44,456 bases of DNA from Acutalibacteraceae bacterium (GCA_045632165.1 JAZQWD010000082.1:1-44456); one strand, 5' to 3'. Counted from the stretch's first letter, positions 881 through 39,752 are shown. Notes: a model not told the origin generated them from the sequence alone. A program made the numbers and translations.

Positions 881-1774
881 TTACCATACATTTTCTTTAA
901 AGCTTGAACCAAATTCCGACGGGGTCATCCCGACACGTTTTTTAAACAGTCTCGCAAAATAAGACGGATTTTGAAAGCCCAATTTGTCCGAAATTTGCGA
1001 AATGGTCATTTCACTTTCAGTTATAAGGCGTTTAGCCTCGTCAATTTTTAAATCTATAAAATAGTTTATTATTCCGCCTTGATGTGATTTTTGAAAGGTT
1101 TTTTTAAGCATTGACGGACTACAATTGAAATTATTTGAAATTTCTTTAATTGTAACGTTGTCACATATATGCTTTTCAAGATAGACTTCAACGTCGGCCA
1201 TAAAACGCTTATCAACTGCTTGCTTTGTATATGTGTCAAGTCTTTCGGGTGGGTTTGTGTTATCCTTTCGTAAAATAATTGAAACCAGTAAAAGTTGCAA
1301 TAAATTTTTTACAGTTTGTGAATAAAACACCGCTTCGTTGTTATTTGATTTTGCAGTTATACGGCCGGGTATAATTTTTGTTTTATACGCCTTTTGGGAA
1401 TAACGGTATGCGTCATATAAATAGTTGCGTTCCTGTGTGTTTAAAAAGAAAAAACCGTTTTCTAAAACTGACATTGCGGGACTTTGACAAGCAAAAGCAA
1501 CCACAAAATAATTTGCAGCAGTATTTTCATAAGCACAAACAGCGTGAAATTCATTCGGCTTATGAAATGCTATTTCGCCCGATTTTAATACATAATTATT
1601 ATCCCCCGCTGTAATCATTACCTTGCCCTTATCAACATATATCATTTCCCAAATGGGATGCTGTTCACCTATAACGCTAAAATTGCGTGGTGCCTTATGA
1701 TAAAACAAGCTAATAATATTTGTAATGTTTACTTCATCGTTAAGCGGATATCCCGAAAGCTTAAAATTTTCCAA
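881..1774 (-). CDS. AraC family transcriptional regulator (N-terminal cupin-like sensor plus C-terminal double HTH)
   Basis: The C-terminus (ISNNFNCSPSMLKKTFQ...ISQISDKLGFQNPSYFARLFKKRVGMTPSEF) is a typical AraC/XylS HTH pair. The TTG start is preceded by a GGGAGGA RBS. The stop lies 15 nt upstream of the nucleoside hydrolase start. Confidence 0.85.
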   Translation of the reverse strand: MENFKLSGYPLNDEVNITNIISLFYHKAPRNFSVIGEQHPIWEMIYVDKGKVMITAGDNNYVLKSGEIAFHKPNEFHAVCAYENTAANYFVVAFACQSPAMSVLENGFFFLNTQERNYLYDAYRYSQKAYKTKIIPGRITAKSNNNEAVFYSQTVKNLLQLLLVSIILRKDNTNPPERLDTYTKQAVDKRFMADVEVYLEKHICDNVTIKEISNNFNCSPSMLKKTFQKSHQGGIINYFIDLKIDEAKRLITESEMTISQISDKLGFQNPSYFARLFKKRVGMTPSEFGSSFKENVW

Positions 1775-1960
1775 AATAGCCGTTCCTCCCTAACATATAA
1801 ATGCCTATATTAACAATAGCACAAAAAGTCACAAAAGCCAAGAGAAAATATTACGGCGTGTCCGATAGTGTGATATTTGTGCCTAATAATTTCTTAAAAC
1901 ATATTGTGTTTTTTGATATGCTATAAGTATAAAAAAATCATTTTAAAAAGGTGATAAATT

Positions 1961-2791
1961 ATGAAAAAAGGTATAAGCATTTGGACATTTAATGACCGAA
2001 GCCCCGAAGCATGCTTTGCGTTGGCTAAAAAGTATGGCTTTGACGGTGTTGAGGTTGGACTTGGCAGCGTTGGCCCTCTACGTTATGATTCTACTGTAGA
2101 CGAAATTAAAGCATACAAGAAAGCTGCCGAAAGCTATGGAATTTCTTTTTACAGCCTTGTTTGTGACGACTGTTGGAAATATCCGCTTACATCCGATTCG
2201 CCCGAAATTCGCCAAAAGGGTGCTGAAATTGTTAAAAAGCAAATTGAGGTTGCGGCACTTTTGGGCTGTGATACAACCTTGGTTTTACCCGGTATGGTAC
2301 AGGGTCTCGCCCCCGACAGCGAGGTTATTCCTTATGATGTTGCCTACGACCGCGCCCTTACCGAAATGAAAAAACTCGCCAAAATTGCTGAAGAATATAA
2401 CGTAACACTTGGTGTTGAAAACGTTTGGAACAAGTTTTTACTTTCACCTTTAGAAATGCGTGATTTTATTGACCGTGTTGGCAGTCCGCGCGTTGCCGCA
2501 TATTTTGACGTTGGCAACGTTGTAATTAACGGTTTTCCTGAGCAGTGGATTAAAATTCTCGGCACTCGTATTGCTAAGGTGCATTTTAAAGACTTCAAAC
2601 GCAGTATTGGTACAGCCGACGGCTTTGTAGATATTTTAGACGGCGACGTAGATTATACTGCTGTTATGGCTGAGCTTGAAAAAGCAGGTTATAACGGTTG
2701 GGTAACAGCCGAAGTTTTCCCTCTTGACGGCGACACCGAAAAAACATTGGCGGTAAATTCAGCCGCTATGGATAAAATTTTAAATAGATAA
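1961..2791 (+). CDS. Sugar phosphate isomerase/epimerase (xylose isomerase-like TIM barrel) family protein
   Basis: The 276-aa length and the pattern ...LGCDTTLVLPG...LGVENVWNKFL...AAYFDVGN...HFKD... fit the AP-endonuclease-2/xylose-isomerase-like TIM barrel family. An AAGGTGA RBS is present. Confidence 0.75.
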   Translation: MKKGISIWTFNDRSPEACFALAKKYGFDGVEVGLGSVGPLRYDSTVDEIKAYKKAAESYGISFYSLVCDDCWKYPLTSDSPEIRQKGAEIVKKQIEVAALLGCDTTLVLPGMVQGLAPDSEVIPYDVAYDRALTEMKKLAKIAEEYNVTLGVENVWNKFLLSPLEMRDFIDRVGSPRVAAYFDVGNVVINGFPEQWIKILGTRIAKVHFKDFKRSIGTADGFVDILDGDVDYTAVMAELEKAGYNGWVTAEVFPLDGDTEKTLAVNSAAMDKILNR

Positions 2792-2803
2792 GGAGAAAAT
2801 AGT

Positions 2804-3811
2804 ATGATTAATGTTGCAATAATTGGTTTTGGCGGTATTGCAAAAGCCGCACACCTTAACCCATATTTACAACTACAAAAGGATGGCATTTTAAACCTTG
2901 TTGCAGTTTGTGATGTTTGTCCCGAACGATTTGAAGAAAAGGCTGAAATCAACATTGGCGAATCAGACTTAATGCTTGATGAAACCGTTAATAAATACAC
3001 CAATTATAAAGAAATGCTTGAAAAAGAAAGCATTGATATGGTGGATATTTGTCTTCCAACATATTTACACGCCGAGGCCACAATCTATGCCCTTAATGCA
3101 GGCTGTCACGTGCTTTGCGAAAAGCCTATGAGCTTAAACTTCGAGCTTTGCCAAAATATGATAAACGCCGCTAACAAAAACGGCAAAAAGCTTATGATTG
3201 GTCAATGCTTACGCTTCTTTAATATTTATAACTATTTAAGAGAGATTGTAGTAAATAAAACCTATGGTGATGTCAAGGGCGGCATATTCTTCCGCTCAAG
3301 CGCGCCACCAATTTGGGGCTGGGAAAACTGGTTTTTAGATTATGAAAAATCACACGGTTGCATTACAGATATGCATATACACGATATTGATATGGTTCGT
3401 TACACCTTTGGTGAACCTATGGCGGTTTCGTGTCACACACAAGATATTTATTCCAAAAAGGATGCCGCACATTCAACCCTAAAATACCCCGACTTTTCTA
3501 TTCTTGCTATTGGTGATTGGTCGCAGGAAGGCACCTCGTTCTCGTTCGGTTACCGCATTTCGCTTGAAAAGGCAATTGTTGACTGTGCAGGCGGCACAAT
3601 TACGGTATATCCCCGCGGTGGAGAAGCATATCAGCCGGAATTACCCACAGATGACTGTTACTTTAACGAAATTAAATTCTTTGTTGAAAGCATCGTAAAC
3701 GGTACCGAAAACCTTGCTAACCCACCCGAAAGTGCTGCTTTATCGATTAAGCTAATTAACAAGCTTATTGAAAGTTCGGACAAAAACGGTGAATATCTTA
3801 CCTTTGCTTAA
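2804..3811 (+). CDS. Gfo/Idh/MocA family oxidoreductase
   Basis: It has the N-terminal Rossmann motif VAIIGFGGIAKAAH and the HVLCEKP motif. An AAGGAG RBS is present, and the gap to the upstream gene is 12 nt. Confidence 0.85.
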   Translation: MINVAIIGFGGIAKAAHLNPYLQLQKDGILNLVAVCDVCPERFEEKAEINIGESDLMLDETVNKYTNYKEMLEKESIDMVDICLPTYLHAEATIYALNAGCHVLCEKPMSLNFELCQNMINAANKNGKKLMIGQCLRFFNIYNYLREIVVNKTYGDVKGGIFFRSSAPPIWGWENWFLDYEKSHGCITDMHIHDIDMVRYTFGEPMAVSCHTQDIYSKKDAAHSTLKYPDFSILAIGDWSQEGTSFSFGYRISLEKAIVDCAGGTITVYPRGGEAYQPELPTDDCYFNEIKFFVESIVNGTENLANPPESAALSIKLINKLIESSDKNGEYLTFA

Positions 3812-3834
3812 TATTTATAATTAAGGTGAATTAT

Positions 3835-5736
3835 ATGAATTTACGAGTTCCCGCAATACCTTTAATAACTATTGACCCATACTTTTCAGTTTGGGCAGGT
3901 AAATCATTACAGCAAAACACTATGCATTGGTCAAATAACCCCAACACAACCTGTGTTCAGGTTACAGTTGACGGCAACACCCTTCACGCCTTAGGTCATA
4001 AGCCCGAAGTGATTAAGGATATGCCTGATATGACAATCGAAAACGTTGATATGGACGCTTTTTCAACAATTATAACATATAAGACCGATGCGATTCGCTT
4101 AACCCTTAAATTCACATCTCCCCTTTTAGTTGAGGATTTATATTACGCTTCACGTCCTGTTTCATACTGTAAGGCCAGCTATGAAAGTCTAGACGGTAAA
4201 CCACACGAGGTTTCAGTTAAATTCATCTTAACCGAAGAGCTAGTGCTTTTTAAAAGAGGAGAAGGTCGCGCAATTGCCGATGTTGTAGAAATTGAAAATA
4301 TCTCCGCCATTAAGATGGGTGGCGGCGAACAAAAGGTTTTGGGCAGAAGCGGCGACAATATTTGCATAGACTGGGGCTATTTATATCTTTGTATAAAAGG
4401 CAACGGAAATGTAAAGCACACCTATTTTGACGGTATGTATGCCATAAGCGGTGAAGCAAAACTTAATGATGAAGCGTTATTTTTATTCGCTTATGACGAT
4501 ATTTACAGTATTCAGTACTTTAAAGAAAATTTAAAGGCATATTGGCGTAAGGACGGAAAAACTATCGAGCAAGCCATTATCGAAGCGGCTAACGATTACG
4601 ACAGTCTTATTATTAGATGTAAGGAATTTTCCGACAAGGTTAAAACCGAAGCCACAGAAAAGGGCAGCGAAAAATATGCCGAGCTTTTGCTTTTAGCTAT
4701 TCGTCAGGTTATGGCTGCCCATAAGCTTGTAGTTGATAACAAGGGTAATAATCTTTACATTTCCAAGGAATGTTGGTCGGACGGCTGCGCCGCAACGGTG
4801 GACGTAACCTACCCATCAGCGCCTATGTATTTAATTTATAATACTGAGCTTTTAAAGGGTATGCTTCGTCCTGTTATGGATTATGCATATTCTGACGAAT
4901 GGACCCCCGACTATGCCCCGCACGATTTGGGTGAATACCCGCTTTTAAACGGTCAGTTGTATGGTGTAACCCGCAACCCCGATGGCACAGTAGTAATTGA
5001 CCACAATATGCAAATGCCGGTTGAAGAATGTGGCAATATGATTATTTTATTTGCCGCTATTTGCGACGCCGATAACAACACTGACTTTGTGGCAGAGCAT
5101 ATTGACACCTTGCGTACTTGGTGTAAATATCTTATCAAATACGGTCTTGACCCCGAGCATCAACTTTGTACCGACGACTTTGCAGGTCACATGGCGCATA
5201 ACGTAAACCTTTCAATTAAAGCTATTATGGGTATTGCGGCATACAGCCGTATACTTAAACGACTTAGTATTGATGGTGAATCCGAGGAAATGATGCAAAA
5301 GGCCCGTGAATATGCAAAATCGGTTGTAACACGCGCCGCTAATACTGACGGCAGCTACCGTTTGGCTTATGACAAGCCCGACAGCTTTTCACTTAAATAT
5401 AACGCCGTTTGGGATAAAATTTGGAAAACAAACCTATTCCCTAAGGAATTTTACGAAGGTGAAATTAAGCGTTATAAAAAAGAAACACTACCCTATGGTG
5501 TGCCGCTTGACAGCCGTGAAAAATACACCAAATCGGACTGGTTATTGTGGGTGGCTTCAATAGCTGACAACAAGGAAGATTTTACCGCCCTTGTTGATCC
5601 TATGTGGAACGCCTTTAATACAATGCGTACACGCGTGCCTATGTCCGACTGGTATTATTGCGACACGTCAGATTCATGTATGTTCCAAAACAGAACAGTT
5701 CAAGCTGGTCTTTTCATAAGACTTATGTTAGATTAA
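3835..5736 (+). CDS. DUF4965/DUF1793 (glutaminase-A-like, presumed alpha/alpha-barrel glycoside-hydrolase-like) protein, cytoplasmic
   Basis: The conserved core EKYAELLLLAIRQVMAAHKLV...ISKECWSDGCAATVDVTYPSAPMYLIYN matches what I recall of the GtaA-like family. There is no signal peptide. The track starts the ORF at GTG 3826, but that GTG is part of an AAGGTG RBS. ATG 3835 (MNLRVPAIPLITIDPYF) is the better start. Confidence 0.65.
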   Translation: MNLRVPAIPLITIDPYFSVWAGKSLQQNTMHWSNNPNTTCVQVTVDGNTLHALGHKPEVIKDMPDMTIENVDMDAFSTIITYKTDAIRLTLKFTSPLLVEDLYYASRPVSYCKASYESLDGKPHEVSVKFILTEELVLFKRGEGRAIADVVEIENISAIKMGGGEQKVLGRSGDNICIDWGYLYLCIKGNGNVKHTYFDGMYAISGEAKLNDEALFLFAYDDIYSIQYFKENLKAYWRKDGKTIEQAIIEAANDYDSLIIRCKEFSDKVKTEATEKGSEKYAELLLLAIRQVMAAHKLVVDNKGNNLYISKECWSDGCAATVDVTYPSAPMYLIYNTELLKGMLRPVMDYAYSDEWTPDYAPHDLGEYPLLNGQLYGVTRNPDGTVVIDHNMQMPVEECGNMIILFAAICDADNNTDFVAEHIDTLRTWCKYLIKYGLDPEHQLCTDDFAGHMAHNVNLSIKAIMGIAAYSRILKRLSIDGESEEMMQKAREYAKSVVTRAANTDGSYRLAYDKPDSFSLKYNAVWDKIWKTNLFPKEFYEGEIKRYKKETLPYGVPLDSREKYTKSDWLLWVASIADNKEDFTALVDPMWNAFNTMRTRVPMSDWYYCDTSDSCMFQNRTVQAGLFIRLMLD

Positions 5737-5748
5737 AGGAGTAATAAA

Positions 5749-6576
5749 ATGAAGGTTGGTTGCGTAGTAGTTTACGGCAAAAAGGATATATTTGAAAGCT
5801 TTGCCGAGCTTAGAAAAAACGGTTTTGACAACTGTCAGCTTATTTGTTGGGATGCGATAAACGATTATACCGATAAAGAAGCTGAAAAAATTAATAAAGC
5901 CAAGGCCGAGTATGACATTGAGATTACAACCCTTTGGGCAGGCTGGTCAGGCCCCAAGATTTGGGATTTTTACGACGGACAGGAAACCCTTGGACTTTTA
6001 CCCGCGGCATACAGAGCTATGCGTGTTGAAGAACTTATAAAGGGTGCTGAATTTGCAACTAAAATTGGTGTAAACAGCATAACAACCCACGCGGGCTTTA
6101 TACCCGAAAATCCCCACAGTGCCGATTATCACGGTTTAATTTCCGCCTTAAAGGCTGTTGCCCAAAAAGCAAAGGAATTAGGCATTGAATTTCGTTTTGA
6201 AAGCGGACAGGAAACACCCATTACCTTGCTTCGCGCAATTCAGGACATTGGTACCGATAACCTTGGCATTAACCTTGACCCCGCAAACCTTATTGTTTAC
6301 GGTAAGGCAAACCCCTGCGATGCATTGATGACTATTGGCAAATATGTAAAGGGTGTGCACGCAAAGGATGGCAAATACCCCACCGACGGACGATTTTTAG
6401 GTGAAGAAACACCTTTGGGTGAAGGCCTTGTAAACTTCCCAAGACTTATCCCCTTGCTTAAAGAATGCGGTTATGACGGTCCCCTTACCATTGAACGCGA
6501 AATTGAAGGCGAACAGCAAATTATTGATATTATTAATGGCAAGAAGTTCTTAGAAGAAATTATTGCCGCAAGCTAA
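5749..6576 (+). CDS. Sugar phosphate isomerase/epimerase (xylose isomerase-like TIM barrel) family protein
   Basis: It is 275 aa. ...ITTHAGFIP...FRFESGQET...INLDPANL...HAKDG... is the typical metal-ligand pattern of this TIM-barrel family. An AAAGGAG RBS is present. Confidence 0.75.
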   Translation: MKVGCVVVYGKKDIFESFAELRKNGFDNCQLICWDAINDYTDKEAEKINKAKAEYDIEITTLWAGWSGPKIWDFYDGQETLGLLPAAYRAMRVEELIKGAEFATKIGVNSITTHAGFIPENPHSADYHGLISALKAVAQKAKELGIEFRFESGQETPITLLRAIQDIGTDNLGINLDPANLIVYGKANPCDALMTIGKYVKGVHAKDGKYPTDGRFLGEETPLGEGLVNFPRLIPLLKECGYDGPLTIEREIEGEQQIIDIINGKKFLEEIIAAS

Positions 6577-6591
6577 TTTAGGGAGATACTT

Positions 6592-7617
6592 ATGGAAAAA
6601 TTAAGAGTTTGTATAGCCGGCTGCGGAAATATTTTTACAATGCATTCAACCTCGGTTGCTTCCTTTAGCGATGCCGAACTTGTGGGTGTTTGTGATATTA
6701 AGCCCGAAAGAGCTATTGCCGCTGCCGAAAAATTCAACACCAAGGCATATACCGATTATAAAGTAATGCTTGCCGAACAAAAGCCCGACATTCTTCATGT
6801 ATGTCTACCCCACTATTTACATCCAATCGTATCCAAATATGCCATACAGCAAGGCATTAACGTACTTTGCGAAAAACCGATAAGCATAAATATGGACGAT
6901 GCAATCGAAAATGTAAGACTTGCAAAGGAAAAGGGCGTATTATACGGAATTATTTTCCAATGCAGATATAACACCGTTTCACAAACCGTTAAAAAATATA
7001 TTGAAAACGGTAAGCTTGGTAAGGTTTTAAGCGCGCGTTCAGTTCTGACCTGGTGTAAGCCCGACAGCTATTATTCCCTTTCAGACTGGAAGGGTACTTG
7101 GGATAAAGAGGGTGGCGGTGTTGTTATTGACCAAGCCATTCATTCAATGGACCTTGTGAATTGGTTTGTTGATTCCGAGCCGGCATCGGTTTACGCCCAT
7201 TATGACAACCGCGACCACGAAATAATGCAGGTGGATGATAGTGCCGAAGGTCTTATAAAATATAAGAACGGCGTAAATTACGGCTTTTGGGCGATGAACA
7301 ATTACGGCGTTGACGAGCCGATAGAAATTCGCCTTTTGTGTGAAAACGGTAAAGCCGTGCTTTCTTACGATGATATGACAATAACCCTTAATGACGGAAC
7401 AGTAATTACCGACGCACAGGATATGTCCGATGCGCTTAATTACGAAAATGGCAAGGATTATTGGGGTTTTCAGCACGTAAAGCAAATACGCCAATTTTAT
7501 AATAGCGTTCAGGGCAAGGAAGCGCTCGAAATATCTGCCGAAGAAGCGCTTAAAATTCAAAAAATCATCTGTGCAATTTATGAAAGCTCACGTCAAGGTA
7601 AACCCATAGAATTTTAA
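6592..7617 (+). CDS. Gfo/Idh/MocA family oxidoreductase
   Basis: It has the Rossmann motif VCIAGCGNIF and the NVLCEKP motif. A GGGAGA RBS is present. This is the last gene of the plus-strand block. Confidence 0.85.
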   Translation: MEKLRVCIAGCGNIFTMHSTSVASFSDAELVGVCDIKPERAIAAAEKFNTKAYTDYKVMLAEQKPDILHVCLPHYLHPIVSKYAIQQGINVLCEKPISINMDDAIENVRLAKEKGVLYGIIFQCRYNTVSQTVKKYIENGKLGKVLSARSVLTWCKPDSYYSLSDWKGTWDKEGGGVVIDQAIHSMDLVNWFVDSEPASVYAHYDNRDHEIMQVDDSAEGLIKYKNGVNYGFWAMNNYGVDEPIEIRLLCENGKAVLSYDDMTITLNDGTVITDAQDMSDALNYENGKDYWGFQHVKQIRQFYNSVQGKEALEISAEEALKIQKIICAIYESSRQGKPIEF

Positions 7618-7622
7618 AAATT

Positions 7623-7660
7623 AAAACCACGAAACAATTAAGTTTCGTGGTTTTTGCTTT
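7623..7660. terminator. Bidirectional rho-independent terminator between convergent genes
   Basis: There is a perfect 13-bp stem: aaaaccacgaaac (7623-7635) pairs with gtttcgtggtttt (7642-7654) around a 6-nt loop. T-rich runs flank it on both strands. It sits between the stop at 7617 (+) and the stop at 7662 (-). Confidence 0.75.
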
Positions 7661-7661
7661 T

Positions 7662-8306
7662 TTATTTAATTTTTTCAAAACCTTCAAGCCATTTTCTTTT
7701 AATGAGCTCGTGTCCCTTCGCTGTGGGATGCACACCGTCATAAGCCCAATATATCGAGGGAGCTTTTGTACATGCTTCATCAAAAGCAGCCTGTAAATCA
7801 ATATAAGTAAGGTCAAATTTTTCTGCAACTGATTTTGCTGCTTCGGCACGCTTTGCAACCTCGGTACTAAAACAATCAAATCTTGTAGGGTTTTCTTCAT
7901 TATTGCAGGTTGCCGGACCATTGAGAACATAAGGTAATAACAACATTATCTTAACATCAGGCAATTCGTCCTTAATTTCCTCAATCAGCATAGTGTATAT
8001 TTTTAAAAATTTTTTAGCCGAAACACCGTTTTGGCTACCAATTTCATGCCAAACATCATTAACACCAATAAGAATACTTAAATAATCCGGCTTAAGATTA
8101 ATTATATCGGATTTTATGCGGGCGTACATATCAACTATACGGTTGCCGTTTATACCACGATTTAAAAAGGTGTATTCTTCGGGATATTCATACCCCATTT
8201 GTGCTTCAACCATTCGAACATAGCCCAAACCTGAAAACATATCATTTTCACGGTTACGACCGCAATCAGTGATAGAATCACCCTGAAAAACAATAATTTT
8301 AGCCAT
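7662..8306 (-). CDS. SGNH/GDSL hydrolase family esterase (probable carbohydrate O-acetylesterase)
   Basis: The N-terminal block I motif is FQGDSITD. Later blocks are NRGINGN and GVNDVW, and there is a C-terminal DGVHPT (DxxH). There is no signal peptide. Its start overlaps the upstream AraC stop by 8 nt. Confidence 0.8.
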   Translation of the reverse strand: MAKIIVFQGDSITDCGRNRENDMFSGLGYVRMVEAQMGYEYPEEYTFLNRGINGNRIVDMYARIKSDIINLKPDYLSILIGVNDVWHEIGSQNGVSAKKFLKIYTMLIEEIKDELPDVKIMLLLPYVLNGPATCNNEENPTRFDCFSTEVAKRAEAAKSVAEKFDLTYIDLQAAFDEACTKAPSIYWAYDGVHPTAKGHELIKRKWLEGFEKIK

Positions 8307-23596: not shown

Positions 23597-24871
23597 TCAG
23601 ATAATGTCAGTTAATTTAACACGTGTTAATTCCATAACTTCTTTTTGTTTAGAATAGAAAATATACATATAATCGTCCTGAATTAAAACTTCAGGATAAG
23701 CATAATAACCGTTCTTTGCCCAGCCGCTTTGCTGAAGCTCGTACTTTTCGTCACGCAAGATATATTCACGGTCCCAGTTATAGCCGTCGTCAGAAATTTG
23801 AAGAACTAACGGATAGCGGTTAGAGCCATAGCGTGAGGTGCCTACAAAATAGAAACGACCGTCGGGCAAGCGACCAAAGTTAGCCATTGTAGCTTCGGTT
23901 GCAAAGTTTGTGGGGTAAACGTCGGTAAAGGTTTCGCCGTTGTCATAGCTTTCGGTCATCCAAATGCGATTGGTGTCACTGCGTATCATAACGTGAATAA
24001 CATAATCGTCGGTTTGATACCAAGAAGCTTCTTGAAGAATATTTGCGCCACGGTCAAAACCTGACTGCTCCTGTTCTTTGGTTAAGCGGCCCACCTTCCA
24101 CATAAGCGAGCCGATATCATCGGTGTATATAACACCTGTACCCGCGCCCGCAAAATAACGGCCTGTAAGCGATTTCTTAGGTGATTCGTTAGCGCCTATA
24201 GAGACAACTGCGGGTTTACTCCAGGTTTTGCCATCGGTAGTGGATACAACCTTTGAAACGTATTTATAATACTTAATAATTTGCTTTATCCAGGTACCGT
24301 CAGCGCGGAAGTTATCAGGACCAAAATGAGCTTCACGATAATAGTAATAAAGCTTATTGGGAGTTGATACGAAAAATCCGCCCTGGTTTGCAGTCATACC
24401 AAAACCGCCGTCAACCGAAGGTCCTACAACTACCGGCTTGCTCCAATTATAAAAATCAGACGAGCTTGAAATTACAACAGATTGACCGGGAGAATCCTCG
24501 TCCTTAGCTGCCTGACCCCAAGCGGCATAAAACTTACCCTTAAAGTAAGCAAAGCCCGGTTGATGCTTAAAGCCGTTTTCTGACTCAAAATCAGAAACGA
24601 CAACCTTTTCTGAAGCAATTTTTTTGCTGTTTTTAAGCGCCTTTGAATTATCAACCTTTACAGCCGACTGCTGTATTGTAAGCTTTGGTGTAACAGGAAA
24701 TGTATCCTTCCATTCTTCGGGATTATATGTAACGGTAGAGCCCGAAGGTGTATCCGATGGATTATCGCCATTTGAGCCCGAAGAATTACCGCCGCAGCCC
24801 GCCAATGCCGATAACACTAAAATCATTGCCAGTCCGCGAAGCGCCACGCCTTTAAAACTAATAGGTTTCAT
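23597..24871 (-). CDS. Surface lipoprotein with a BNR/Asp-box sialidase-fold beta-propeller
   Basis: The lipobox is LSALAGC, followed by a Gly/Ser/Asn-rich linker. Asp-boxes are STTDGKTWS, SYDNGETFT, ISDDGYNWD and a degenerate SSSDFYNWS. No F/YRIP motif is present. I prefer ATG 24871 (MKPISF...) because the track GTG at 24880 lies inside a GAAAGGTGA RBS. Confidence 0.7.
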   Translation of the reverse strand: MKPISFKGVALRGLAMILVLSALAGCGGNSSGSNGDNPSDTPSGSTVTYNPEEWKDTFPVTPKLTIQQSAVKVDNSKALKNSKKIASEKVVVSDFESENGFKHQPGFAYFKGKFYAAWGQAAKDEDSPGQSVVISSSSDFYNWSKPVVVGPSVDGGFGMTANQGGFFVSTPNKLYYYYREAHFGPDNFRADGTWIKQIIKYYKYVSKVVSTTDGKTWSKPAVVSIGANESPKKSLTGRYFAGAGTGVIYTDDIGSLMWKVGRLTKEQEQSGFDRGANILQEASWYQTDDYVIHVMIRSDTNRIWMTESYDNGETFTDVYPTNFATEATMANFGRLPDGRFYFVGTSRYGSNRYPLVLQISDDGYNWDREYILRDEKYELQQSGWAKNGYYAYPEVLIQDDYMYIFYSKQKEVMELTRVKLTDII

Positions 24872-24886
24872 TATTTTCACCTTTCT

Positions 24887-31688: not shown

Positions 31689-31703
31689 TCTCGCCATTAT
31701 GCA
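31689..31703 (-). promoter_or_regulatory. Candidate shared operator or promoter element TGCATAATGGCGAGA (read on the minus strand), upstream of the ribokinase-led array
   Basis: The same sequence, GCA(A/T)AATGGCGAGA with 13/14 identical, occurs in the matching orientation at 40727-40740, upstream of the SIS/FucU/BNR/repeat-protein operon. It is GC-rich against an AT-rich intergenic background. Confidence 0.3.
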
Positions 31704-31710
31704 ACTAATG

Positions 31711-31739
31711 ATGGACATTTTTTGTCTTTTGTGTTATAA
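31711..31739 (+). promoter_or_regulatory. Sigma-A-type promoter for the AraC gene (TGGACA, 17-nt spacer, TATAAT, with a TGn extension)
   Basis: tggaca (31711-31716) is followed by a 17-nt spacer ending in tgt, then tataat (31734-31739). The GAGGTGA RBS and TTG start lie just downstream. Confidence 0.45.
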
Positions 31740-31758
31740 TGCACTTGAGGTGAAAGAT

Positions 31759-32860: not shown

Positions 32861-32894
32861 TCAACTGTAAAAATGTACGGTGGAGGTCCTTAGA

Positions 32895-33923
32895 TTGAGC
32901 TTTGATAACCGTGGAATTATTATAGCAGGCAATATTATAACCGATGTTGTTAAAACCGTTGACTGTTATCCTCAAATCGGTATGCTTGCCAATATTTCAA
33001 GCGTTAGTCGTGCGGTTGGCGGTTGTGTTCCCAATACAGCAATTGACCTTAAAAAAATTGACGATAATATAAAGGTTTCGGCCATAGGTAAAATCGGTAA
33101 CGATGATAGCGGCGAGTATATACTTTCACAGTTTAAACGCTATGGAATTTTGTTTGACAAGGTTAAGCGTTCTCAAACAAAACCGACAAGCTTTAGCGAT
33201 GTAATAAGTTTACCATCAGGTGAACGCACCTTCTTTCACGCAAGGGGTGCTAATGCTGAGTTTTCACCCAAGGATATTGATTTAGACAACCTCGAATGCG
33301 ATATTTTTCATATTGGTTACATACTCTTACTTGACAGTATGGACAAAGCTGACAATGAATATGGTACCGCTATGGCGCGTCTTTTAAAGTCTGTTCAGGA
33401 AAAAGGAATTAAAACCTCTATTGATGTTGTAAGTGACAGTACTGCCGATTATAAAGCAAAAATCGTTCCTGCGCTTAAATATAGTAATTATGCCATTATG
33501 AACGAGGTTGAAAGCTGTATGCTGTCAGATTTAAGCCCATATAATGCCGACAAATCAATAAATACCGAAAATATTCGCAAAACAATGGAAGCTATGGCCG
33601 AATACGGTGTTAAGGACAAAGTTATTATACACTGTAAGGATGCCGGTTTTTGCTATGATGTACAGTCTCAAAGCTTTACTGCTGTTTCCTCTTTGAATAT
33701 TCCGAAAGAGGAAATCCTTGGCAGTGTTGGAGCTGGTGATGCATTTTGTGCAGGTGCACTTTACGGTATTTATAACCATTTTACAGATTATGAAATTTTA
33801 AACTTTGCTTCAGCCGCCGCTGCTTGCAATTTGTTTTGCGAAAATTCAGTTGATGGTATGAAGTCAAGAGAAGAAATTTATAAAATTGCTAAAAAATATG
33901 GCAGGAAAGAGGATGTATTATGA
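32895..33923 (+). CDS. PfkB family carbohydrate (ketose or ketose-phosphate) kinase
   Basis: The nucleotide-site motif is GSVGAGDAFCAGALYG. The N-terminal sugar-site block is GGCVPNTAIDL...IGKIGNDDSG. I prefer TTG 32895, 8 nt after GGAGG, over the track GTG at 32880. Confidence 0.75.
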   Translation: MSFDNRGIIIAGNIITDVVKTVDCYPQIGMLANISSVSRAVGGCVPNTAIDLKKIDDNIKVSAIGKIGNDDSGEYILSQFKRYGILFDKVKRSQTKPTSFSDVISLPSGERTFFHARGANAEFSPKDIDLDNLECDIFHIGYILLLDSMDKADNEYGTAMARLLKSVQEKGIKTSIDVVSDSTADYKAKIVPALKYSNYAIMNEVESCMLSDLSPYNADKSINTENIRKTMEAMAEYGVKDKVIIHCKDAGFCYDVQSQSFTAVSSLNIPKEEILGSVGAGDAFCAGALYGIYNHFTDYEILNFASAAAACNLFCENSVDGMKSREEIYKIAKKYGRKEDVL

Positions 33924-34756
33924 TAGTAAATCTCAACGATGTGCTTAAAAAAGCGCAAGCCGAGCATTATGGTGTGGGTCTTTTCAATACTACAGATACC
34001 GATATGGCTGAAGCGGTAATTTCTGCAGCTGAAGAAATGAATTCACCCGTTATAATCGGTACTGCTGAAGTGCTTTTGCCTTATGGCGAATTAAAACTCA
34101 TTGCACCTTCAATTCGTGCGTTAGCTGAACGAGCAAAGGTTCCCGTTGTGCTACATTACGACCACGGTTTAACCTTTGACCGTTGTATTGAGGCCTTAAA
34201 ACTTGGCTTTTCAAGTATTATGTTTGATGGTTCTGCAGGGGACAGCAAACAAAATATTGCCAACACAGCCGAAATAGTTAAAATTGCACATTCCTTTGGT
34301 GCTTCGGTTGAAGGCGAAATCGGTCATGTTGGTCAGGCTTCAAGCGGTGATGGCGAGCTTACAAACATGTATACCACACCCGAAGAAGCTAGAGCTTTTG
34401 TTGAAGCAACCGGTGTTGATGCTTTGGCTGTTGCAATAGGTACGGCTCACGGTATTTATAAAACAAAACCTCGTTTGGATATTGAAAGACTTAAAGAAAT
34501 TCGCGCTGCTATTGATACTCCTTTGGTGCTTCATGGCGGTTCAGGGTTAAGTGATGACGATTTCAGAAATACAATTGCAGGCGGTATTGCCAAGGTTAAT
34601 ATATTTACTGATCTTTGTGTTGCCGGTGTTCGCGCTATGGAGAAGGGTATTGCCGAGAATAAAGACTACCTTGAAATACGCAATATGAAGGTTTTAGAAA
34701 TCAAAAATACCGTAATGAAAAAAATGGAGCTTTTTGGCTCTAAAGATAAGGCATAA
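33920..34756 (+). CDS. Class II (metal-dependent) ketose-bisphosphate aldolase (FBA/tagatose-bisphosphate aldolase family)
   Basis: Supporting motifs are HYDHG, FDGS, EGEIGHVG and VLHGGSG. The ATGA start/stop overlap with the kinase gene implies translational coupling. Confidence 0.85.
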   Translation: MIVNLNDVLKKAQAEHYGVGLFNTTDTDMAEAVISAAEEMNSPVIIGTAEVLLPYGELKLIAPSIRALAERAKVPVVLHYDHGLTFDRCIEALKLGFSSIMFDGSAGDSKQNIANTAEIVKIAHSFGASVEGEIGHVGQASSGDGELTNMYTTPEEARAFVEATGVDALAVAIGTAHGIYKTKPRLDIERLKEIRAAIDTPLVLHGGSGLSDDDFRNTIAGGIAKVNIFTDLCVAGVRAMEKGIAENKDYLEIRNMKVLEIKNTVMKKMELFGSKDKA

Positions 34757-34786
34757 ATAAGATATTATTTTTAAGGAGAATGAACT

Positions 34787-35734
34787 ATGGATTTTAACTC
34801 AACTGTAAAAGGTTCAGCACTCGAAGGCTTTTATCCTGCAGGGTGGGACTTTGAAAAAATTGATGCTTGTATTGATACCCCTGAAACTATTACCGAACAT
34901 CAAGCACATTGGAATAAGGATTTTACACCCATTAAGTGCGACAGTCTTGGTGAATTTGAGACCTATATGGGTCACGAAATTGCAATGCAAATAAAGCTTG
35001 CCAAAGAAAGAAATGAAAAAATCGCTTTCATTTTACCCGTTGGCCCTATGGGTATGTATAAATGGGTTGTATATTTCTTAAAAGCTTGGAATGTTTCTTG
35101 CAATCATGTTTACACCTTTAATATGGATGAATGGGCCGATGGTGAAGGAAACACACTTCCTTCGGATAATACAGGATCCTTTAAATATGCTATGGAACAA
35201 GCATTGTTTGGCCCTTTGGGTGAGCTTACCGTTCCTGAAAATCAACGTAACTTTGCCCTTAAGGATAATCTTCCTACATACCCTGAAAAAATTGCTAAAT
35301 TAAAGGCCGAAGGCGCAAAGCTTGTTTTAGTTTATGGTATTGGCAGAATGTGCCATATAGCTTTCTGGGAACCCACCTTTGCGGCCGATTATAACACTGC
35401 TGAAGAATGGGAAGCAGCACCTTATAGGATTGGTGCTAAAATTCATCCCTTAACTGTTGAGCAAAACGCTTTAACAAGCTTTAAATCAAGAACACCGCTT
35501 GTTCCTTGCCGAGCAAATACAATTGGCCCCGGCATATTCTTAAAGGCCGATTATGCAATTGGTGGTGCGGATGGTATACTTGGTCGCGGAATGCAATGGC
35601 AAGGTCTTTCACTTTGGATGACACTTCGCCACGAAAAAACCCCTTGGATTACTTCGACATATATTCCCACAATTCCCGGCAAGCTTTTCTTCCTTAAAGA
35701 GCTTGCAGGTCCACTTGAAGCTGAATGTAACTAA
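34787..35734 (+). CDS. NagB/AgaI-like sugar-6-phosphate deaminase/isomerase family protein (atypical, 315 aa)
   Basis: FILPVGPMG matches LGLPTGGTP, TFNMDEW matches TFNMDEY, and [13 protein letters not shown] matches GVGNDGHIAFNEP of E. coli NagB. The Asp/His/Glu positions are conserved. There is an extra N-terminal region of about 70 aa. Confidence 0.7.
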
Positions 35735-35767
35735 ATATAACTATCATACTGCAAAGGAGTATATTAA

Positions 35768-36490
35768 ATGAATGTTTTAGCAATTGGTTGTCATCCTGAT
35801 GACGTAGAATGTGGTTGTAGCGGTACACTTGCAAAATGCGTAAAACGCGGCGACAAGGTTATTGTTTGTCATGCATCAACCGGCAATTTGGGACATGTTG
35901 TAATCCCACCCGAAGAACTGATTAAAATTCGTGCAAACGAAGCCAAAAAAGCAGGCTCACTTGCAGGTATTGAGGTTATTTGTGCAGGCTTTAACGACCT
36001 TGAACTTTATGACAACAATAAAGAAGCCCGCGACAAGATTGTTGATATTATTCGTTACGCTAACCCCGATTTTATAATTACACAAAACCCAGACGATTAT
36101 ATGCCTGACCATACGGCAATTTCGCGCTTGGTTTTTGACGCCAGCTTTGCCGCTACCCTTCCTAATTATAAATATAAGGCGCACTTCAGCAATCCCAATG
36201 ACCCGCCCGCAAAATTAGTGCCTATTTTTTATATGGACCCCACCGCAGGCGTTAATTTCGTGCCTGAATTTTTTGTTGATATAAGTGAAGAAATCGATTT
36301 AAAAATGGAAATGCTTGAGTGTCACGAAAGTCAGCTTGTTTGGATGCGTGACCACGACAACATCGACTTTGCTGACTTTATAAAAACCTGCTCACGTTTC
36401 CGCGGTTATCAATGCGGTGCCGAATACGCTGAAGGCTTCCGTCAATGCAAGGCATACCTTAAAGGCACAACCGAAAGATTATTACCTTAA
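35768..36490 (+). CDS. PIG-L/LmbE family N-acetyl-sugar deacetylase
   Basis: VLAIGCHPDDVECGCSG is the (A/C)HPDDxE zinc motif. A downstream MPDHTA motif is also present. Confidence 0.85.
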   Translation: MNVLAIGCHPDDVECGCSGTLAKCVKRGDKVIVCHASTGNLGHVVIPPEELIKIRANEAKKAGSLAGIEVICAGFNDLELYDNNKEARDKIVDIIRYANPDFIITQNPDDYMPDHTAISRLVFDASFAATLPNYKYKAHFSNPNDPPAKLVPIFYMDPTAGVNFVPEFFVDISEEIDLKMEMLECHESQLVWMRDHDNIDFADFIKTCSRFRGYQCGAEYAEGFRQCKAYLKGTTERLLP

Positions 36491-36496
36491 AAATTT

Positions 36497-36547
36497 AAAA
36501 ATCAGATACATTATTCTTTTGAAAAAATGTATCTGATTTTTTTATTT
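36497..36547 (+). terminator. Rho-independent terminator after the amino-sugar operon
   Basis: The stem is 15 bp: aaaatcagatacatt (36497-36511) pairs with aatgtatctgatttt (36526-36540). It is followed by tttatttt. Confidence 0.75.
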
Positions 36548-36673
36548 TCAATGAACAAAATTAGCTCTGATAAAAAAATGAGCTAATTTTATAAAAACGA
36601 GCCTATTTTCTAAAGACAAATTTTTGTTATTGTGTTATTTTAATAATGTAAAAACATAAAAGGAGAGATTTTT

Positions 36674-38581
36674 ATGAAGCTTCGTCCCCCCGCTTATCCG
36701 TTAATTACAGTTGACCCTTATTTTAATATTTGGGCAATGAACGACAAACTTAATGCCGACCACACGCGTTTTTGGACCGGTGATCGAACAATGTTGCTTG
36801 GGAAAGCAACCATTGACGAGAAAACCTTTGTTTTTATGGGTTCGGCCGAAGAAATGCAATTACCCCCTATGAACCAAGTAAGTGTAGATGTCACAACCTT
36901 CACAACAAAATACATTTTTGAAGCTGCAGGCGTAATGCTAACTGCCACCTTCACAACCCCAATTTTGCCTGATGACCTAGCACTTGCTTCTCGCCCCGTT
37001 TCTTATTTACATATAGAAGTAGGTTCTACTGACGGTAAAAACCATACCGTATCAGTTGAGGTTAAAGCTTCCGAAGAGTTTTGTATGGAAAATTATGAAG
37101 ATCTTGGTGTAAACGTTAACCAAATAAAAGTCTCCCCTTCTATTTCTGCTATGCGTATTGGCGGTATTGAGCAAGCAATTCTCGGAAAATCAGGTGATGG
37201 CATTGGAATTGACTGGGGATATTTTTATCTTGCAATTAAAGATGGTGAACTATCAACCGATGAAGAATTCAAACGCGTTTTCGTTTCCGCTAAAAAATCA
37301 CTTGATACAAATGAAAATCAAACTGCTTTATTTGCTTTTGCTTACGATGATATTAAATCTATCGTGTACTTCGGCAACCAACTTGATGCCTATTGGAAGT
37401 CACAAGGCAAAACCATTGAACAAGAAATTGAAGCTGCTTTTTTAGAATATGAATCACTTATGCTTCGTACAAAAGCATTTCACGACAAACTTTTTTCAGA
37501 TGCAACCACTGCCGGTGGTGAAAAATATGCCGAACTTCTTGTTTTAGCACTTCGCCAAGTTATGGCAGCACATAAATTAGTGGTGGATACTGAAGGTAAA
37601 TTACTTTTCATTTCAAAAGAGTGCTTTTCTAACGGATGTGCCGCCACCACTGACGTAAGTTATCCTTCTATTCCTTTGTTCTTAATTTATAATACCGAGC
37701 TAGCAAAGGGTATTATGCGACCGATTATGCATTATTCCGCAAGTGAACATTGGCCCTATCCCTTCGCTCCACATGATGTGGGTAGATATCCTATTCTTAA
37801 CGGTCAAGCCTATAGCCGTGGCACAAAACCTGCATGGCAAATGCCGGTTGAAGAATGCGGAAATATGCTTTTGATGGCCTCTGCTGTAGCTTTAGCCGAA
37901 AAAAATACCGATTTCGTCACAGAACATAAGGAATTGCTTGATAAATGGGCTGAATATTTAGTTGAAAACGGATTAGATCCGGAAAGTCAAGTAACCTCTG
38001 ATGACTTTGCAGGCCATATCGCTCACAACTGTAATCTATCGCTTAAAGCATTAATGGCGCTTGGCGGATATGCAAAGATTTGCGAAATAATGAATGAACC
38101 CGATAAATCTCAAAAATACCGTAGCGCCGCCGAAGAAATGGCAAAATTTTGGATTGAAAACGCCGCAAACGGTGACGGCAGTTTCCGTTTAGCATTTGAC
38201 CGCCCCGATAGCTTTAGTATGAAATATAACGCTGTTTGGGATAAAATTTTCGGCTTAAGTCTTTTACCAAAAGACGCAATACAATCAGAACTCAATAGCT
38301 ATGTGCAAAAAGCAAATCCTTATGGTATACAACTAATTGACACTTCAGATTTCACAAATTCAGGTTGGATTGCATGGACCGCCACTATGGCTGATACACA
38401 AGAATTATTTAGCAAATTAATGGACCCCGTGTGGCTTTGCTTCCATATTTCACCCTCTCGCGTGCCCTTGGCGGACTGGTATTCATCAGTTACATCTATT
38501 AAGCTTGCAGGACAAAACCGTACTGTTCAAGGCGCATTATTTATGAAATTATTAGATTATAAGAAAATTTGTCACTTTTAA
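36674..38581 (+). CDS. DUF4965/DUF1793 (glutaminase-A-like) protein, paralogue of 3835-5736, cytoplasmic
   Basis: It is colinear with the first copy. EKYAELLVLALRQVMAAHKLVVD..ISKECFSNGCAATTDVSYPSIPLFLIYNTEL is about 70 percent identical in the core. An AAGGAGAG RBS is present. Confidence 0.65.
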   Translation: MKLRPPAYPLITVDPYFNIWAMNDKLNADHTRFWTGDRTMLLGKATIDEKTFVFMGSAEEMQLPPMNQVSVDVTTFTTKYIFEAAGVMLTATFTTPILPDDLALASRPVSYLHIEVGSTDGKNHTVSVEVKASEEFCMENYEDLGVNVNQIKVSPSISAMRIGGIEQAILGKSGDGIGIDWGYFYLAIKDGELSTDEEFKRVFVSAKKSLDTNENQTALFAFAYDDIKSIVYFGNQLDAYWKSQGKTIEQEIEAAFLEYESLMLRTKAFHDKLFSDATTAGGEKYAELLVLALRQVMAAHKLVVDTEGKLLFISKECFSNGCAATTDVSYPSIPLFLIYNTELAKGIMRPIMHYSASEHWPYPFAPHDVGRYPILNGQAYSRGTKPAWQMPVEECGNMLLMASAVALAEKNTDFVTEHKELLDKWAEYLVENGLDPESQVTSDDFAGHIAHNCNLSLKALMALGGYAKICEIMNEPDKSQKYRSAAEEMAKFWIENAANGDGSFRLAFDRPDSFSMKYNAVWDKIFGLSLLPKDAIQSELNSYVQKANPYGIQLIDTSDFTNSGWIAWTATMADTQELFSKLMDPVWLCFHISPSRVPLADWYSSVTSIKLAGQNRTVQGALFMKLLDYKKICHF

Positions 38582-38600
38582 TTGTGTAAAGGAGTAAAAA

Positions 38601-39716
38601 ATGTCTAAAAAATTACTTAGATTTGGTATCGTAGGCATCGGTGGTAGACCAAAAGCTTTTTTAAGCGCTTTTGAAAAAAGCGGCAAAGCGTGCCTTGCTG
38701 CTGTATGTGATCTTAACCGTGAAATAATGGATGAAAACACAGCCGATATTCCAAATTTGCTTAAATTTACTGATTATGAAGAAATGCTTGAGAAAGCTAA
38801 CCTGGACGCAGTAATTGTGGGTACTCCCATACATTTACACGTACCTCAATCAATAGCAGCACTTAAAAGAAACATTCATGTTTTCAGCGAAGTTACGGCT
38901 GGAATTTCAATCGAAGAATGCAAACAATTAGTCGATGCTTGTAAAAATTCAAAAGCAAAATATATGTTAGGCGAAAATTGCAATTATTTGCGTTCTAATA
39001 TGATTGTTGCCAATATGATAAAAGACGGCAAATTCGGCGAGCTTTGCTATGCTGAGGGTGAATATAACCACGACTGCCGTAACCTTATACCCAAAACCCC
39101 TTGGCGTAAAAAATATGTATTTGATGTGGCGGGTATAACCTATGGTACACATTCGTTAGGACCGATTCTTTCTTGGCTTGGAGACGACCGAGTTACATCG
39201 GTTTGTTGTGCAGGAAGCAATAGCGCAACAACTGATTTGGATGGAAATCCATTTGAAACTTCAACCTGTTATATTATGCTTTGCAAAACCGAAAAAGGTC
39301 GCCTTATTAAAATTAAAAACAATATGCTTTCCCCCCGTCCTTACGGCTTGAATTATTCTTTAGAAGGTAGCAAAGCGGCTTTCCAAAGTTTTCGTTTAGA
39401 AGACCAAACTGACAACCCCGACTATATTTGGTTTGACGGTAAATCACCTAAAACTCGTTGGGAGGATATCGCAATTTACGAAGAAGGTTACGTACCTGAA
39501 ATTTGGAAAAAGCATTCAAATGAAAACAACGCAAAAGGTCACGAAGGTGCCGATGTTATTACAATGATTGACTTCATTGACGCAATTTACGACGGAAAAG
39601 AATCCCCCATTGATGTTCACAAGGCAATGGATATGACCTTACCCGGCCTTATCAGTCAGCAGTCTGTTAAAAACGGTGGGATTTGGCTAGACGTTCCAAA
39701 TTCGCGTGATTGGTAA
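38601..39716 (+). CDS. Gfo/Idh/MocA family oxidoreductase-like protein with an altered EKP motif
   Basis: The Rossmann motif is FGIVGIGGRP. The position of the conserved (C)EKP motif reads HVFSEVT, so Lys is replaced by Val. Confidence 0.75.
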   Translation: MSKKLLRFGIVGIGGRPKAFLSAFEKSGKACLAAVCDLNREIMDENTADIPNLLKFTDYEEMLEKANLDAVIVGTPIHLHVPQSIAALKRNIHVFSEVTAGISIEECKQLVDACKNSKAKYMLGENCNYLRSNMIVANMIKDGKFGELCYAEGEYNHDCRNLIPKTPWRKKYVFDVAGITYGTHSLGPILSWLGDDRVTSVCCAGSNSATTDLDGNPFETSTCYIMLCKTEKGRLIKIKNNMLSPRPYGLNYSLEGSKAAFQSFRLEDQTDNPDYIWFDGKSPKTRWEDIAIYEEGYVPEIWKKHSNENNAKGHEGADVITMIDFIDAIYDGKESPIDVHKAMDMTLPGLISQQSVKNGGIWLDVPNSRDW

Positions 39717-39752
39717 TAAACTGAACTTTAATAATTTTGAAAAAGGTGTTTT

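Follow-up and report, generated by a model that had tools for sequence, protein, structure and literature searches.

A five-gene operon of TIM-barrel, Gfo/Idh/MocA and GtaA-like proteins in an Acutalibacteraceae bacterium: a candidate cytoplasmic 3-keto glycoside route

Two pairs of a xylose-isomerase-like TIM barrel and a Gfo/Idh/MocA oxidoreductase flank a protein of the former DUF4965 family between positions 1,961 and 7,617 of a 44,456-nucleotide (nt) stretch of DNA from an Acutalibacteraceae bacterium (GCA_045632165.1 JAZQWD010000082.1:1-44456), henceforth referred to as the window. The question raised by this locus is what the five genes do together. A previous interpretation made from the sequence alone, the sequence-only reading, took them for a dedicated intracellular deglycosylation module in which oxidation at C3 is followed by elimination. 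The reading favoured here, held at slightly less than even odds (roughly 0.45), is that of an AraC-controlled cytoplasmic operon that processes a glycoside via a keto-sugar, as a Gram-positive, modular variant of the oxidation, beta-elimination, hydration and reduction ('3-keto') route. Its core, in which a metal-dependent TIM barrel acts on an oxidised keto-sugar intermediate, is common to this reading and two of its rivals and is considered likely. The cluster is most likely neither a new kind of system nor a dedicated DUF4965-centred one.

Oxidative, non-Koshland glycoside cleavage is a recent subject. Almost all of its worked examples are periplasmic and Gram-negative, and the one Gram-positive case, P2B11, derives from an unidentified bacterium. 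The operon provides concrete, clonable candidates, and its links to GtaA-like, PIG-L and NagB-like genes hint at the substrate and at the role of a large uncharacterised glycosidase-like family. The five genes are as follows.

1961..2791, plus strand: TIM1, metal-dependent xylose-isomerase-like TIM barrel (AP_endonuc_2, PF01261, E 3.5e-47)
2804..3811, plus strand: GFO1, Gfo/Idh/MocA NAD(P)-dependent oxidoreductase (PF01408 and PF22725)
3835..5736 (open reading frame opens at GTG 3826), plus strand: GTA1, cytoplasmic GtaA-like putative glycoside hydrolase (DUF4964, DUF5127 and GtaA_6_Hairpin)
5749..6576, plus strand: TIM2, metal-dependent xylose-isomerase-like TIM barrel of the 3tva family (AP_endonuc_2, PF01261, E 3.7e-31)
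6592..7617, plus strand: GFO2, Gfo/Idh/MocA oxidoreductase assigned to the pyranoside C3-dehydrogenase group (Pfam GFO_IDH_MocA and C-terminal domain; PDB relatives)

Five co-directional genes and the proposed route

The five open reading frames (ORFs; 1961-2791, 2804-3811, 3826/3835-5736, 5749-6576 and 6592-7617) are all on the plus strand, and the order TIM1, GFO1, GTA1, TIM2, GFO2, that is, TIM barrel, Gfo/Idh/MocA, GtaA-like (ex-DUF4965), TIM barrel, Gfo/Idh/MocA, was confirmed as previously described by the ORFs and Pfam. The tight spacing reported earlier also held, although the figures of 11-14 nt did not: the intergenic gaps are 12, 14 or 23 (depending on the start of GTA1), 12 and 15 nt. 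ATG 3835 is the likelier GTA1 start because database homologues have 633 amino acids. No convincing internal terminator was found within the operon, and the five co-directional genes form a single transcription unit.

The source is a metagenome-assembled genome (MAG) of 1.78 Mb and 89% completeness, from an uncultured bacterium of gut or rumen. It contains nine PF01261 genes and five or six PF01408 genes, and the only TIM-Gfo adjacencies among them are the two in the operon. With so few genes of either family and adjacency confined to these two sites, the five-gene arrangement was confirmed as real rather than a product of chance. The same order is present in a sister species (MAG Oscillospiraceae SIG584, locus L042), where AraC / TIM1-GFO1-GTA1-TIM2-GFO2 / GDSL-AraC-GH43 was observed and the five operon proteins are 85-91% identical to those of the window.

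Under the favoured reading, a Gfo enzyme with bound NAD+, for which GFO2 is the best candidate, would oxidise the C3-OH while the anomeric substituent is still on the sugar. A metal-dependent TIM barrel would eliminate the aglycone by exploiting the acidified C2-H, a TIM barrel would hydrate the product (a 2-hydroxy-3-keto-glycal), and a Gfo enzyme would reduce the 3-keto sugar with regeneration of NAD+. GTA1 would trim the oligosaccharide once imported, either ahead of oxidation or following it. The C3 regiochemistry is predicted by homology. The assignment of the TIM barrels as lyase and hydratase, the order of steps and the substrate, possibly an N-acetyl-amino-sugar or uronic glycoside, are likewise putative.

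Whether the two pairs act in series is a separate matter. They may form one four-step pathway or, since each TIM-Gfo pair occurs alone elsewhere, two self-contained 'two-component glycosidases' of different specificity. In known 3-keto systems the lyases also hydrate and the product recycles the dehydrogenase; therefore, a single TIM-Gfo pair could be self-sufficient, which would explain why pairs are found alone in other genomes. The sequence-only reading had described one pair found twice. Two TIM-Gfo pairs are indeed present, but they are not the same pair repeated: the four enzymes are mutually distant, as would be expected for four different steps, and come from modules that are separate elsewhere. 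GFO1 and GFO2 share 29% identity. A recent tandem duplication was rejected because TIM1 and TIM2 share no BLAST similarity.

The combination of two oxidoreductases and two TIM barrels within one operon is that of characterised 3-keto systems, and the matching content of the P2B11, A. tumefaciens, Dgp and Lgd clusters bears out the earlier statement that a TIM barrel and a Gfo protein are the core of known non-hydrolytic deglycosylation. The P2B11 cluster, from an unknown Gram-positive gut bacterium, is ordered Iso1-Oxido1-Oxido2-Iso2, and its Oxido1 is the solved structure 8tdi (Nasseri et al., bioRxiv 10.1101/2024.03.25.586180). Like the operon, it lacks a DUF1080 protein and has two Gfo/Idh/MocA proteins and two TIM barrels of the 'sugar-phosphate isomerase' kind, and Oxido1 is the best solved match of GFO2 (the sequence comparison with P2B11 covers Oxido1 only). 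The two differ in order, the operon being TIM-Gfo-X-TIM-Gfo with a GtaA-like gene inside, and in regulation, as an AraC regulator adjoins the operon whereas P2B11 has none nearby.

The same four-enzyme content is found in A. tumefaciens (GlycDH-AtOGE-AtHYD-Gfo), strain PUE (DgpA/DgpBC) and Bacillus smithii (Lgd) (Bitter et al. 2023, PMC10628242). GFO1 and GFO2 both count DgpA among their top solved relatives, and AtHYD (8ro4) is among the nearer characterised matches of TIM2. However, the A. tumefaciens oxidase is GlycDH and not a Gfo protein, the operon has no gene for a small DgpC-like subunit, and a GtaA-like gene is absent from the A. tumefaciens, Dgp and Lgd operons. The same logic, with a Gfo C3-dehydrogenase carrying tightly bound NAD and a TIM-barrel 3-keto-glucoside 1,2-lyase, is followed in Bacteroides thetaiotaomicron BT2156-2160 and Alistipes AL1-AL5, but these systems work in the periplasm, their enzymes bearing Sec, lipoprotein or Tat signals, and a DUF1080 lyase/hydratase is part of them. 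All five operon proteins are without signal peptides, and no DUF1080 protein was detected in the window by Pfam.

Relatives of the oxidoreductases and TIM barrels

The top PDB matches of GFO2 are 8tdi (3e-40), the WlbA-type 3q2k (2e-37) and 3q2i (1e-35), and DgpA (7xr9, 9m3d; 3e-29). 8tdi is the P2B11 glucuronide 3-dehydrogenase, while 3q2k and 3q2i are WlbA-type UDP-N-acetylglucosaminuronic acid (UDP-GlcNAcA) 3-dehydrogenases, and all five best solved relatives oxidise C3 of anomerically substituted pyranoses. By this homology, GFO2 would be the enzyme that acts on the C3-OH of an intact glycoside. It is ~35% identical to 8tdi over 237 residues, as counted on the HMMER alignment, and of the six pocket residues named and numbered by the P2B11 authors it keeps Trp179, Tyr185 and His209. 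For GFO1, the top PDB relatives are 3cea (1e-24), whose function is unverified, and DgpA (7xr9/9m3d; 3e-23). Assignment of GFO1 as a NanOx/YjhC-type enzyme was rejected, as such matches were weaker than those to DgpA.

The TIM barrels were compared with the PDB using profiles built from alignments of orthologues from other genomes (A1 for TIM1, A2 for TIM2). Four residues are invariant in each alignment: E153, D183, H208 and E251 in TIM1, and E151, D177, H204 and E249 in TIM2. The TIM1 profile matched MJ1311 (1e-17), UlaE (1e-15), ketose 3-epimerases (~1e-10) and also IolI; among 3-keto-glycoside enzymes it reached DgpB/C at ~2e-3 and AtHYD at 0.05, and AL1/BT1 (8tcd/8tcs) were unmatched. The TIM2 profile matched the uncharacterised 3tva (7e-62) and MJ1311 (6e-16), followed among 3-keto enzymes by Art22 and AtHYD (8ro4; 2e-5), YcjR (5e-4) and the AL1/BT1 lyases (3e-3). 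The open literature gave nothing useful on 2-hydroxy-3-keto-glucal hydratase or Art22. AlphaFold2 (AF2) models of TIM1 and TIM2 had predicted local distance difference test (pLDDT) scores of 94 and 95, respectively. With the TIM1 model, epimerases and UlaE led the Foldseek results at template modelling (TM) scores of 0.82-0.85. With the TIM2 model, 3tva stood at Z 37 and the remaining matches were flat at Z 24-27, with Art22, UlaE, epimerases, AtHYD (Z 24.5) and YcjR (Z 23.9) tied. Beyond 3tva, Foldseek and VIA-align did not separate lyase, hydratase and epimerase.

Several of these results, together with others, count against the favoured reading. By profile and by modelled fold, TIM1 appears nearest to UlaE and to ketose and ketose-phosphate 3-epimerases, and TIM2 to the uncharacterised 3tva, with epimerases, AtHYD and YcjR tied as its next neighbours. 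The known lyases (8tcd/8tcs, 7bvr/7xrf, 8qvc) rank above epimerases for neither protein. The structural comparison proposed in the sequence-only reading did not go its way, as DgpB/C, AL1/BT1 and AtHYD are not ahead of epimerases for either TIM barrel. Three of the six P2B11 pocket residues are changed in GFO2 (Arg181 to Lys, Asn205 to Asp and Asn147 to Gln), and the placement of GFO1 by sequence is ambiguous. The NCBIfam models BT_2158_fam (glycoside 3-dehydrogenase) and BT_2159_fam (disaccharide 3-dehydrogenase) gave only 30.1 and 26.3 bits with GFO1 and 44.7 and 40.2 bits with GFO2, where the cut-offs are 750 and 650. Finally, TIM1-Gfo pairs are often linked to kinase and aldolase genes, an association that fits monosaccharide catabolism equally well. 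The weak likeness of the TIM barrels to known lyases is, in turn, weak counter-evidence, because known eliminases are themselves unlike one another: AtOGE and the C-glycoside eliminase catalyse the same chemistry yet are 'unrelated in sequence'. The P2B11 authors likewise anticipate that similarities will be distant and architectures varied (Nasseri et al., bioRxiv 10.1101/2024.03.25.586180).

The nearest relatives of TIM1, by profile and fold, are 3-epimerases (UlaE and the D-tagatose, D-psicose and L-ribulose 3-epimerases), and they lend themselves to another explanation. The E. coli ycj cluster comprises the Gfo 3-dehydrogenase YcjS, the TIM barrel YcjR, the second dehydrogenase YcjQ and a GH65 phosphorylase. 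By analogy with it, a Gfo protein would oxidise the glycoside at C3, a TIM barrel would epimerise a neighbouring carbon (C4 for YcjR) and the keto group would be reduced again, so that a sugar of unusual configuration is turned into one that the GtaA-like hydrolase could then cleave, with no elimination. Such remodelling is doubtful but has points in its favour. YcjR, a 3-keto-glucoside 4-epimerase (6wn6), is among the TIM2 matches, and the C3-dehydrogenase relatives of GFO2 fit it as well as they fit a lyase. As in ycj, a Gfo and a TIM gene stand beside a glycoside-cleaving enzyme; the embedded GtaA-like gene would gain an essential role, and variable glycosidases adjoin TIM/Gfo modules elsewhere. 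However, the epimerase similarities are all remote (17-22% identity) within a superfamily with one common metal site, YcjR is the top match of neither TIM barrel, and its likeness is no better than that of many epimerases. The operon is also without the GH65/GH13 phosphorylase and the MDR-type second dehydrogenase of ycj, most TIM/Gfo modules of the order have no adjacent glycosidase, and the GtaA link is rare.

The GtaA-like protein and the assembly of the operon

GtaA_6_Hairpin (PF16335), formerly DUF4965, was matched in GTA1 at E 6e-124, and all three domains pass their gathering thresholds: PF16335, PF16334 and PF17168 scored 414, 102 and 39 bits against 24.9, 28 and 30.7, respectively. 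No solved relative was found in the PDB at E <= 0.01 by sequence. In the ESM Atlas, a language-model atlas, GTA1 falls with GtaA clusters and, more distantly, with glycoside hydrolase (GH) family GH52 (score 0.96). The DUF4964, DUF5127 and six-hairpin domains are shared with the GtaA / DUF4964-DUF5127-DUF4965-DUF1793 family (Aspergillus glutaminase A, Phchr2|3002168, Streptomyces WP_074995790; PMC9668830), but the 633-residue GTA1 is cytoplasmic and has no DUF1793 match, while the members from fungi, actinobacteria and Bacteroidetes are longer, secreted proteins. The cytoplasmic location, also stated in the sequence-only reading, was upheld because GTA1 has no signal peptide, unlike its Bacteroidetes homologues. 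In GTA1, its paralogue GTA2 (described below) and all Firmicute relatives, the protein starts with the conserved N-terminal motif itself, with no signal peptide ahead of it.

The open literature on DUF4965, DUF5127 and DUF1793 amounts to a handful of papers. A fungal family member is labelled by a retaining-glycosidase probe, and a bacterial homologue is a weak beta-galactosidase with no glutaminase activity (PMC9668830). The family appears glycosidase-like rather than a family of glutaminases, and 13 acidic residues are invariant across 20 diverse members; E312, D323, D364, E397/E398, D447/D448, D527 and E543 of GTA1 are invariant acids. GTA1 itself is most likely an ordinary cytoplasmic glycoside hydrolase that was recruited to the operon in this lineage.

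The distribution of GtaA-like genes agrees with a recruitment confined to few genomes. GTA1 homologues at 77-80% identity exist (P0003-P0005). Same-genus orthologues at 66-69% identity have an AraC neighbour and neither a TIM nor a Gfo neighbour, and in a metagenome scan the only loci matched by GTA1 were distant (36-41%) and of Bacteroidetes type. Among 38 GtaA-like loci, viewed with flanks of ~9 kb or less, the TIM/Gfo set was present only in the sister species, and one other locus had an adjacent Gfo gene. In an order-wide survey, 300 Oscillospirales genomes were sampled and the contigs of GtaA matches were crossed with those of TIM1, TIM2 and GFO2 matches. GtaA was adjacent to TIM/Gfo genes in one of the 51 other GtaA-bearing genomes (G137), where the order is GTA2-type gene, TIM1, GFO1, TatD, GH29. 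The GtaA link is lineage-specific and not general, so the general co-occurrence of DUF4965 with Gfo and TIM genes anticipated in the sequence-only reading was not borne out. Of its dedicated deglycosylation module, the operon and the fit of the enzyme families stand; the placement of the TIM barrels with known lyases and a system centred on DUF4965 are not supported.

The TIM/Gfo modules themselves are common. A GFO1-like Gfo gene directly follows the TIM1 orthologue at 15 of 20 loci from ~10 families, often with an AraC1-like gene ahead, and TIM2 orthologues, found in roughly a fifth of the 300 genomes, have an adjacent Gfo gene at seven of 20 loci. With TIM1-Gfo pairs in at least 10 families and TIM2 this frequent, the modules of the operon are common in Oscillospirales, which suggests that keto-sugar chemistry is widespread in the cytoplasmic sugar metabolism of gut and rumen Firmicutes. 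Their combinations vary. In one genome (G118, locus L098, G118:C18), AraC / GFO2-TIM2 precedes the gene of a GH78-like six-hairpin protein, another (G230) has AraC / TIM1-GFO1-TIM2-NagB-SGNH esterase, and TIM1-GFO1-TIM2 is also found at L091. A cluster on the minus strand of a further contig (L099, G212:C49:6693-10536) is arranged Gfo-TIM-TIM-Gfo, two of each without a GtaA gene. The GFO2-like protein of L099 is nearest to WlbA and DgpA, C3-dehydrogenase relatives as for GFO2; assignment of L099 to the P2B11 type was rejected, since this protein is no closer to 8tdi (1e-39) than GFO2 is. The glycosidase-type partners beside TIM/Gfo modules also differ (GH78-like at L098, GH20 at L079, BNR_2 at L092, GtaA-like with GH29 at L096), which suggests that the hydrolase partners are interchangeable. 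As a separate observation, one genome carries a head-to-tail array of four TIM1-like paralogues with 32-35% identity to TIM1 (G310:C23:87923-91315).

Because TIM1-Gfo, Gfo/TIM2 and AraC-GtaA units occur separately elsewhere, the operon looks like a fusion of an AraC/TIM1-Gfo unit, a Gfo/TIM2 unit and an AraC/GtaA unit. Its boundaries are marked by the following features.

881..1774, minus strand: AraC1, AraC-family regulator (Pfam HTH_AraC/HTH_18 and AraC_binding/cupin)
1913..1941, plus strand: promoter-like site TTGATA-17-AATCAT in the AraC1/TIM1 spacer (consensus scan)
7623..7654, both strands: bidirectional intrinsic terminator with a 13-bp stem, five G-C pairs and T-runs on either strand

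AraC1 is divergent from TIM1 across a 186-nt spacer and probably regulates the five-gene operon. AraC1-like genes are found in the same divergent position beside TIM1-Gfo units at L082, L088, L089, L091, L092 and L095, and at the sister locus L042. The promoter-like site at 1913-1941 is a consensus match only, of a kind that shuffled sequence yields as often. The terminator lies directly 3' of the GFO2 stop codon and also ends a convergent 24-kb gene array on the minus strand.

The lineage-confined GtaA link, and the apparent assembly of the operon from units that have their own AraC regulators elsewhere, would also be expected if five unrelated sugar genes had been joined by rearrangement and were merely co-transcribed, with no common pathway. 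This is considered very unlikely. The genes are tightly spaced between one promoter region and one terminator, all five are intact in the sister species at 85-91% identity, TIM-Gfo adjacency recurs in many families, and a GtaA-like gene followed by TIM1-Gfo arose again in G137, there with a GTA2-type gene.

Other neighbouring genes were also recorded. At 2-880 on the minus strand, the gene immediately downstream of AraC1 is a truncated one of inosine-uridine nucleoside hydrolase (IUNH)-like type (PF01156, 44 bits), and a weak IUNH-like gene is also near TIM1-GFO1 at L092. An SGNH/GDSL esterase gene is located at 7662-8306 on the minus strand, with similar genes recurring at L025, L026, L097 and L091; these esterases adjoin GtaA-like genes, GFO2 orthologues and the TIM1-GFO1-TIM2 module, and their recurrence hints at an O-acetylated substrate.

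The second GtaA locus and its amino-sugar genes

The window contains a second GtaA locus.

32880..39716, plus strand: PfkB kinase, class II ketose-bisphosphate aldolase, NagB-like protein, PIG-L (BshB1-like) deacetylase, GTA2 and a GH109_C-like Gfo protein, GFO3 (Pfam, NCBIfam)

An EamA transporter gene extends this locus to 40607 (window 32880-40607, plus strand). It is preceded by an AraC gene at 31699-32670 and followed by a KpsF/GutQ-like SIS gene at 40779-41447. GTA2 is 47% identical to GTA1. The PfkB, aldolase, NagB-like and PIG-L genes (32880-36490) are immediately upstream of GTA2 and GFO3; the NagB-like protein has 315 amino acids and no Pfam match, and is a distant NagB relative by NCBIfam.

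In five of 20 TIM1 loci (L077, L088, L089, L090 and L093), TIM1-Gfo is in an operon with PIG-L and NagB-like genes plus PfkB and/or class II aldolase, and two further TIM1 loci have a NagB-type gene. This PIG-L/NagB-like/TIM1-Gfo operon of other Oscillospirales looks like an undescribed amino-sugar route tied to keto-sugar enzymes. Since the genes that flank GTA2 accompany TIM1-Gfo in other genomes, both GtaA loci of the window probably belong to a single pathway, and the substrate of the operon may contain an N-acetyl-amino sugar. A uronic substrate is a weaker hint, taken from the best relatives of GFO2, which act on uronic pyranosides. The operon at L088 additionally contains a mannitol-dehydrogenase-family gene.

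The same five loci favour another explanation, in which GTA1 hydrolyses the glycoside and the Gfo and TIM proteins oxidise, isomerise, epimerise or dehydrate the free sugar, probably an amino sugar, in an iol-like manner towards the PfkB kinase and class II aldolase near GTA2. Inositol operons comprise a Gfo protein, two TIM barrels, PfkB and a class II aldolase, which are the enzyme families seen here, and TIM1 weakly matches the IolO and IolI models while PfkB2 matches the IolC N-domain model. This monosaccharide catabolism is nevertheless rated unlikely. All iol and hydroxypyruvate-isomerase equivalog cut-offs were missed widely, and those for L-ribulose-5-P 3-epimerase (UlaE/SgbU) and ketose 3-epimerases were not reached either. 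TIM1 reached 77.7 bits on PRK13210 (cut-off 200), 35 on OH-pyruv-isom (353) and 48 on the psicose epimerase model (300), TIM2 scored at most 31 bits on any NCBIfam model, the IolE model gave 38 bits (290) and the IolG model 104 and 128 bits with the two Gfo proteins (355). The levoglucosan dehydrogenase equivalog cut-off was also missed widely by the Gfo proteins. The genome, 89% complete, gave no match to IolD, and its sole IolB-family gene is on another contig in an unrelated cluster without Gfo or TIM genes. Grouping of the TIM barrels with ordinary inositol or hydroxypyruvate isomerases, which the sequence-only reading had named as a result that would refute it, was not seen at these cut-offs. 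The top five solved relatives of GFO2, moreover, act on anomerically substituted pyranoses and not on free sugars. The kinase and aldolase do not discriminate, because they would be needed after glycoside cleavage by the 3-keto route, after remodelling or in free-sugar catabolism alike.

The second locus also bears on a larger role for GTA1. Rather than a bystander, it could be an integral catalytic part of a 3-keto route in the cytoplasm, for instance in the lyase/hydratase position that DUF1080 has in Bacteroides. The two loci of the window, with their PIG-L, NagB-like, PfkB and aldolase genes, would then constitute an oxidative pathway, as yet undescribed, by which Gram-positive gut bacteria process glycosides of N-acetyl-amino sugars, possibly uronic ones. 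This is judged quite unlikely; if true, it would be the first physiological role for the DUF4965 family.

Two further gene groups of the genome were noted. The IolB-family cluster (L112, G000:C122:323-5560) comprises PfkB, IolB/KduI (above the IolB cut-off), an FGGY kinase, an unknown gene and an amidohydrolase. Within the window, the long minus-strand transporter array contains a BNR_2 protein gene at 23597-24880 (minus strand), the product of which also matches the BT_1020-like N-terminal beta-propeller PF24067.

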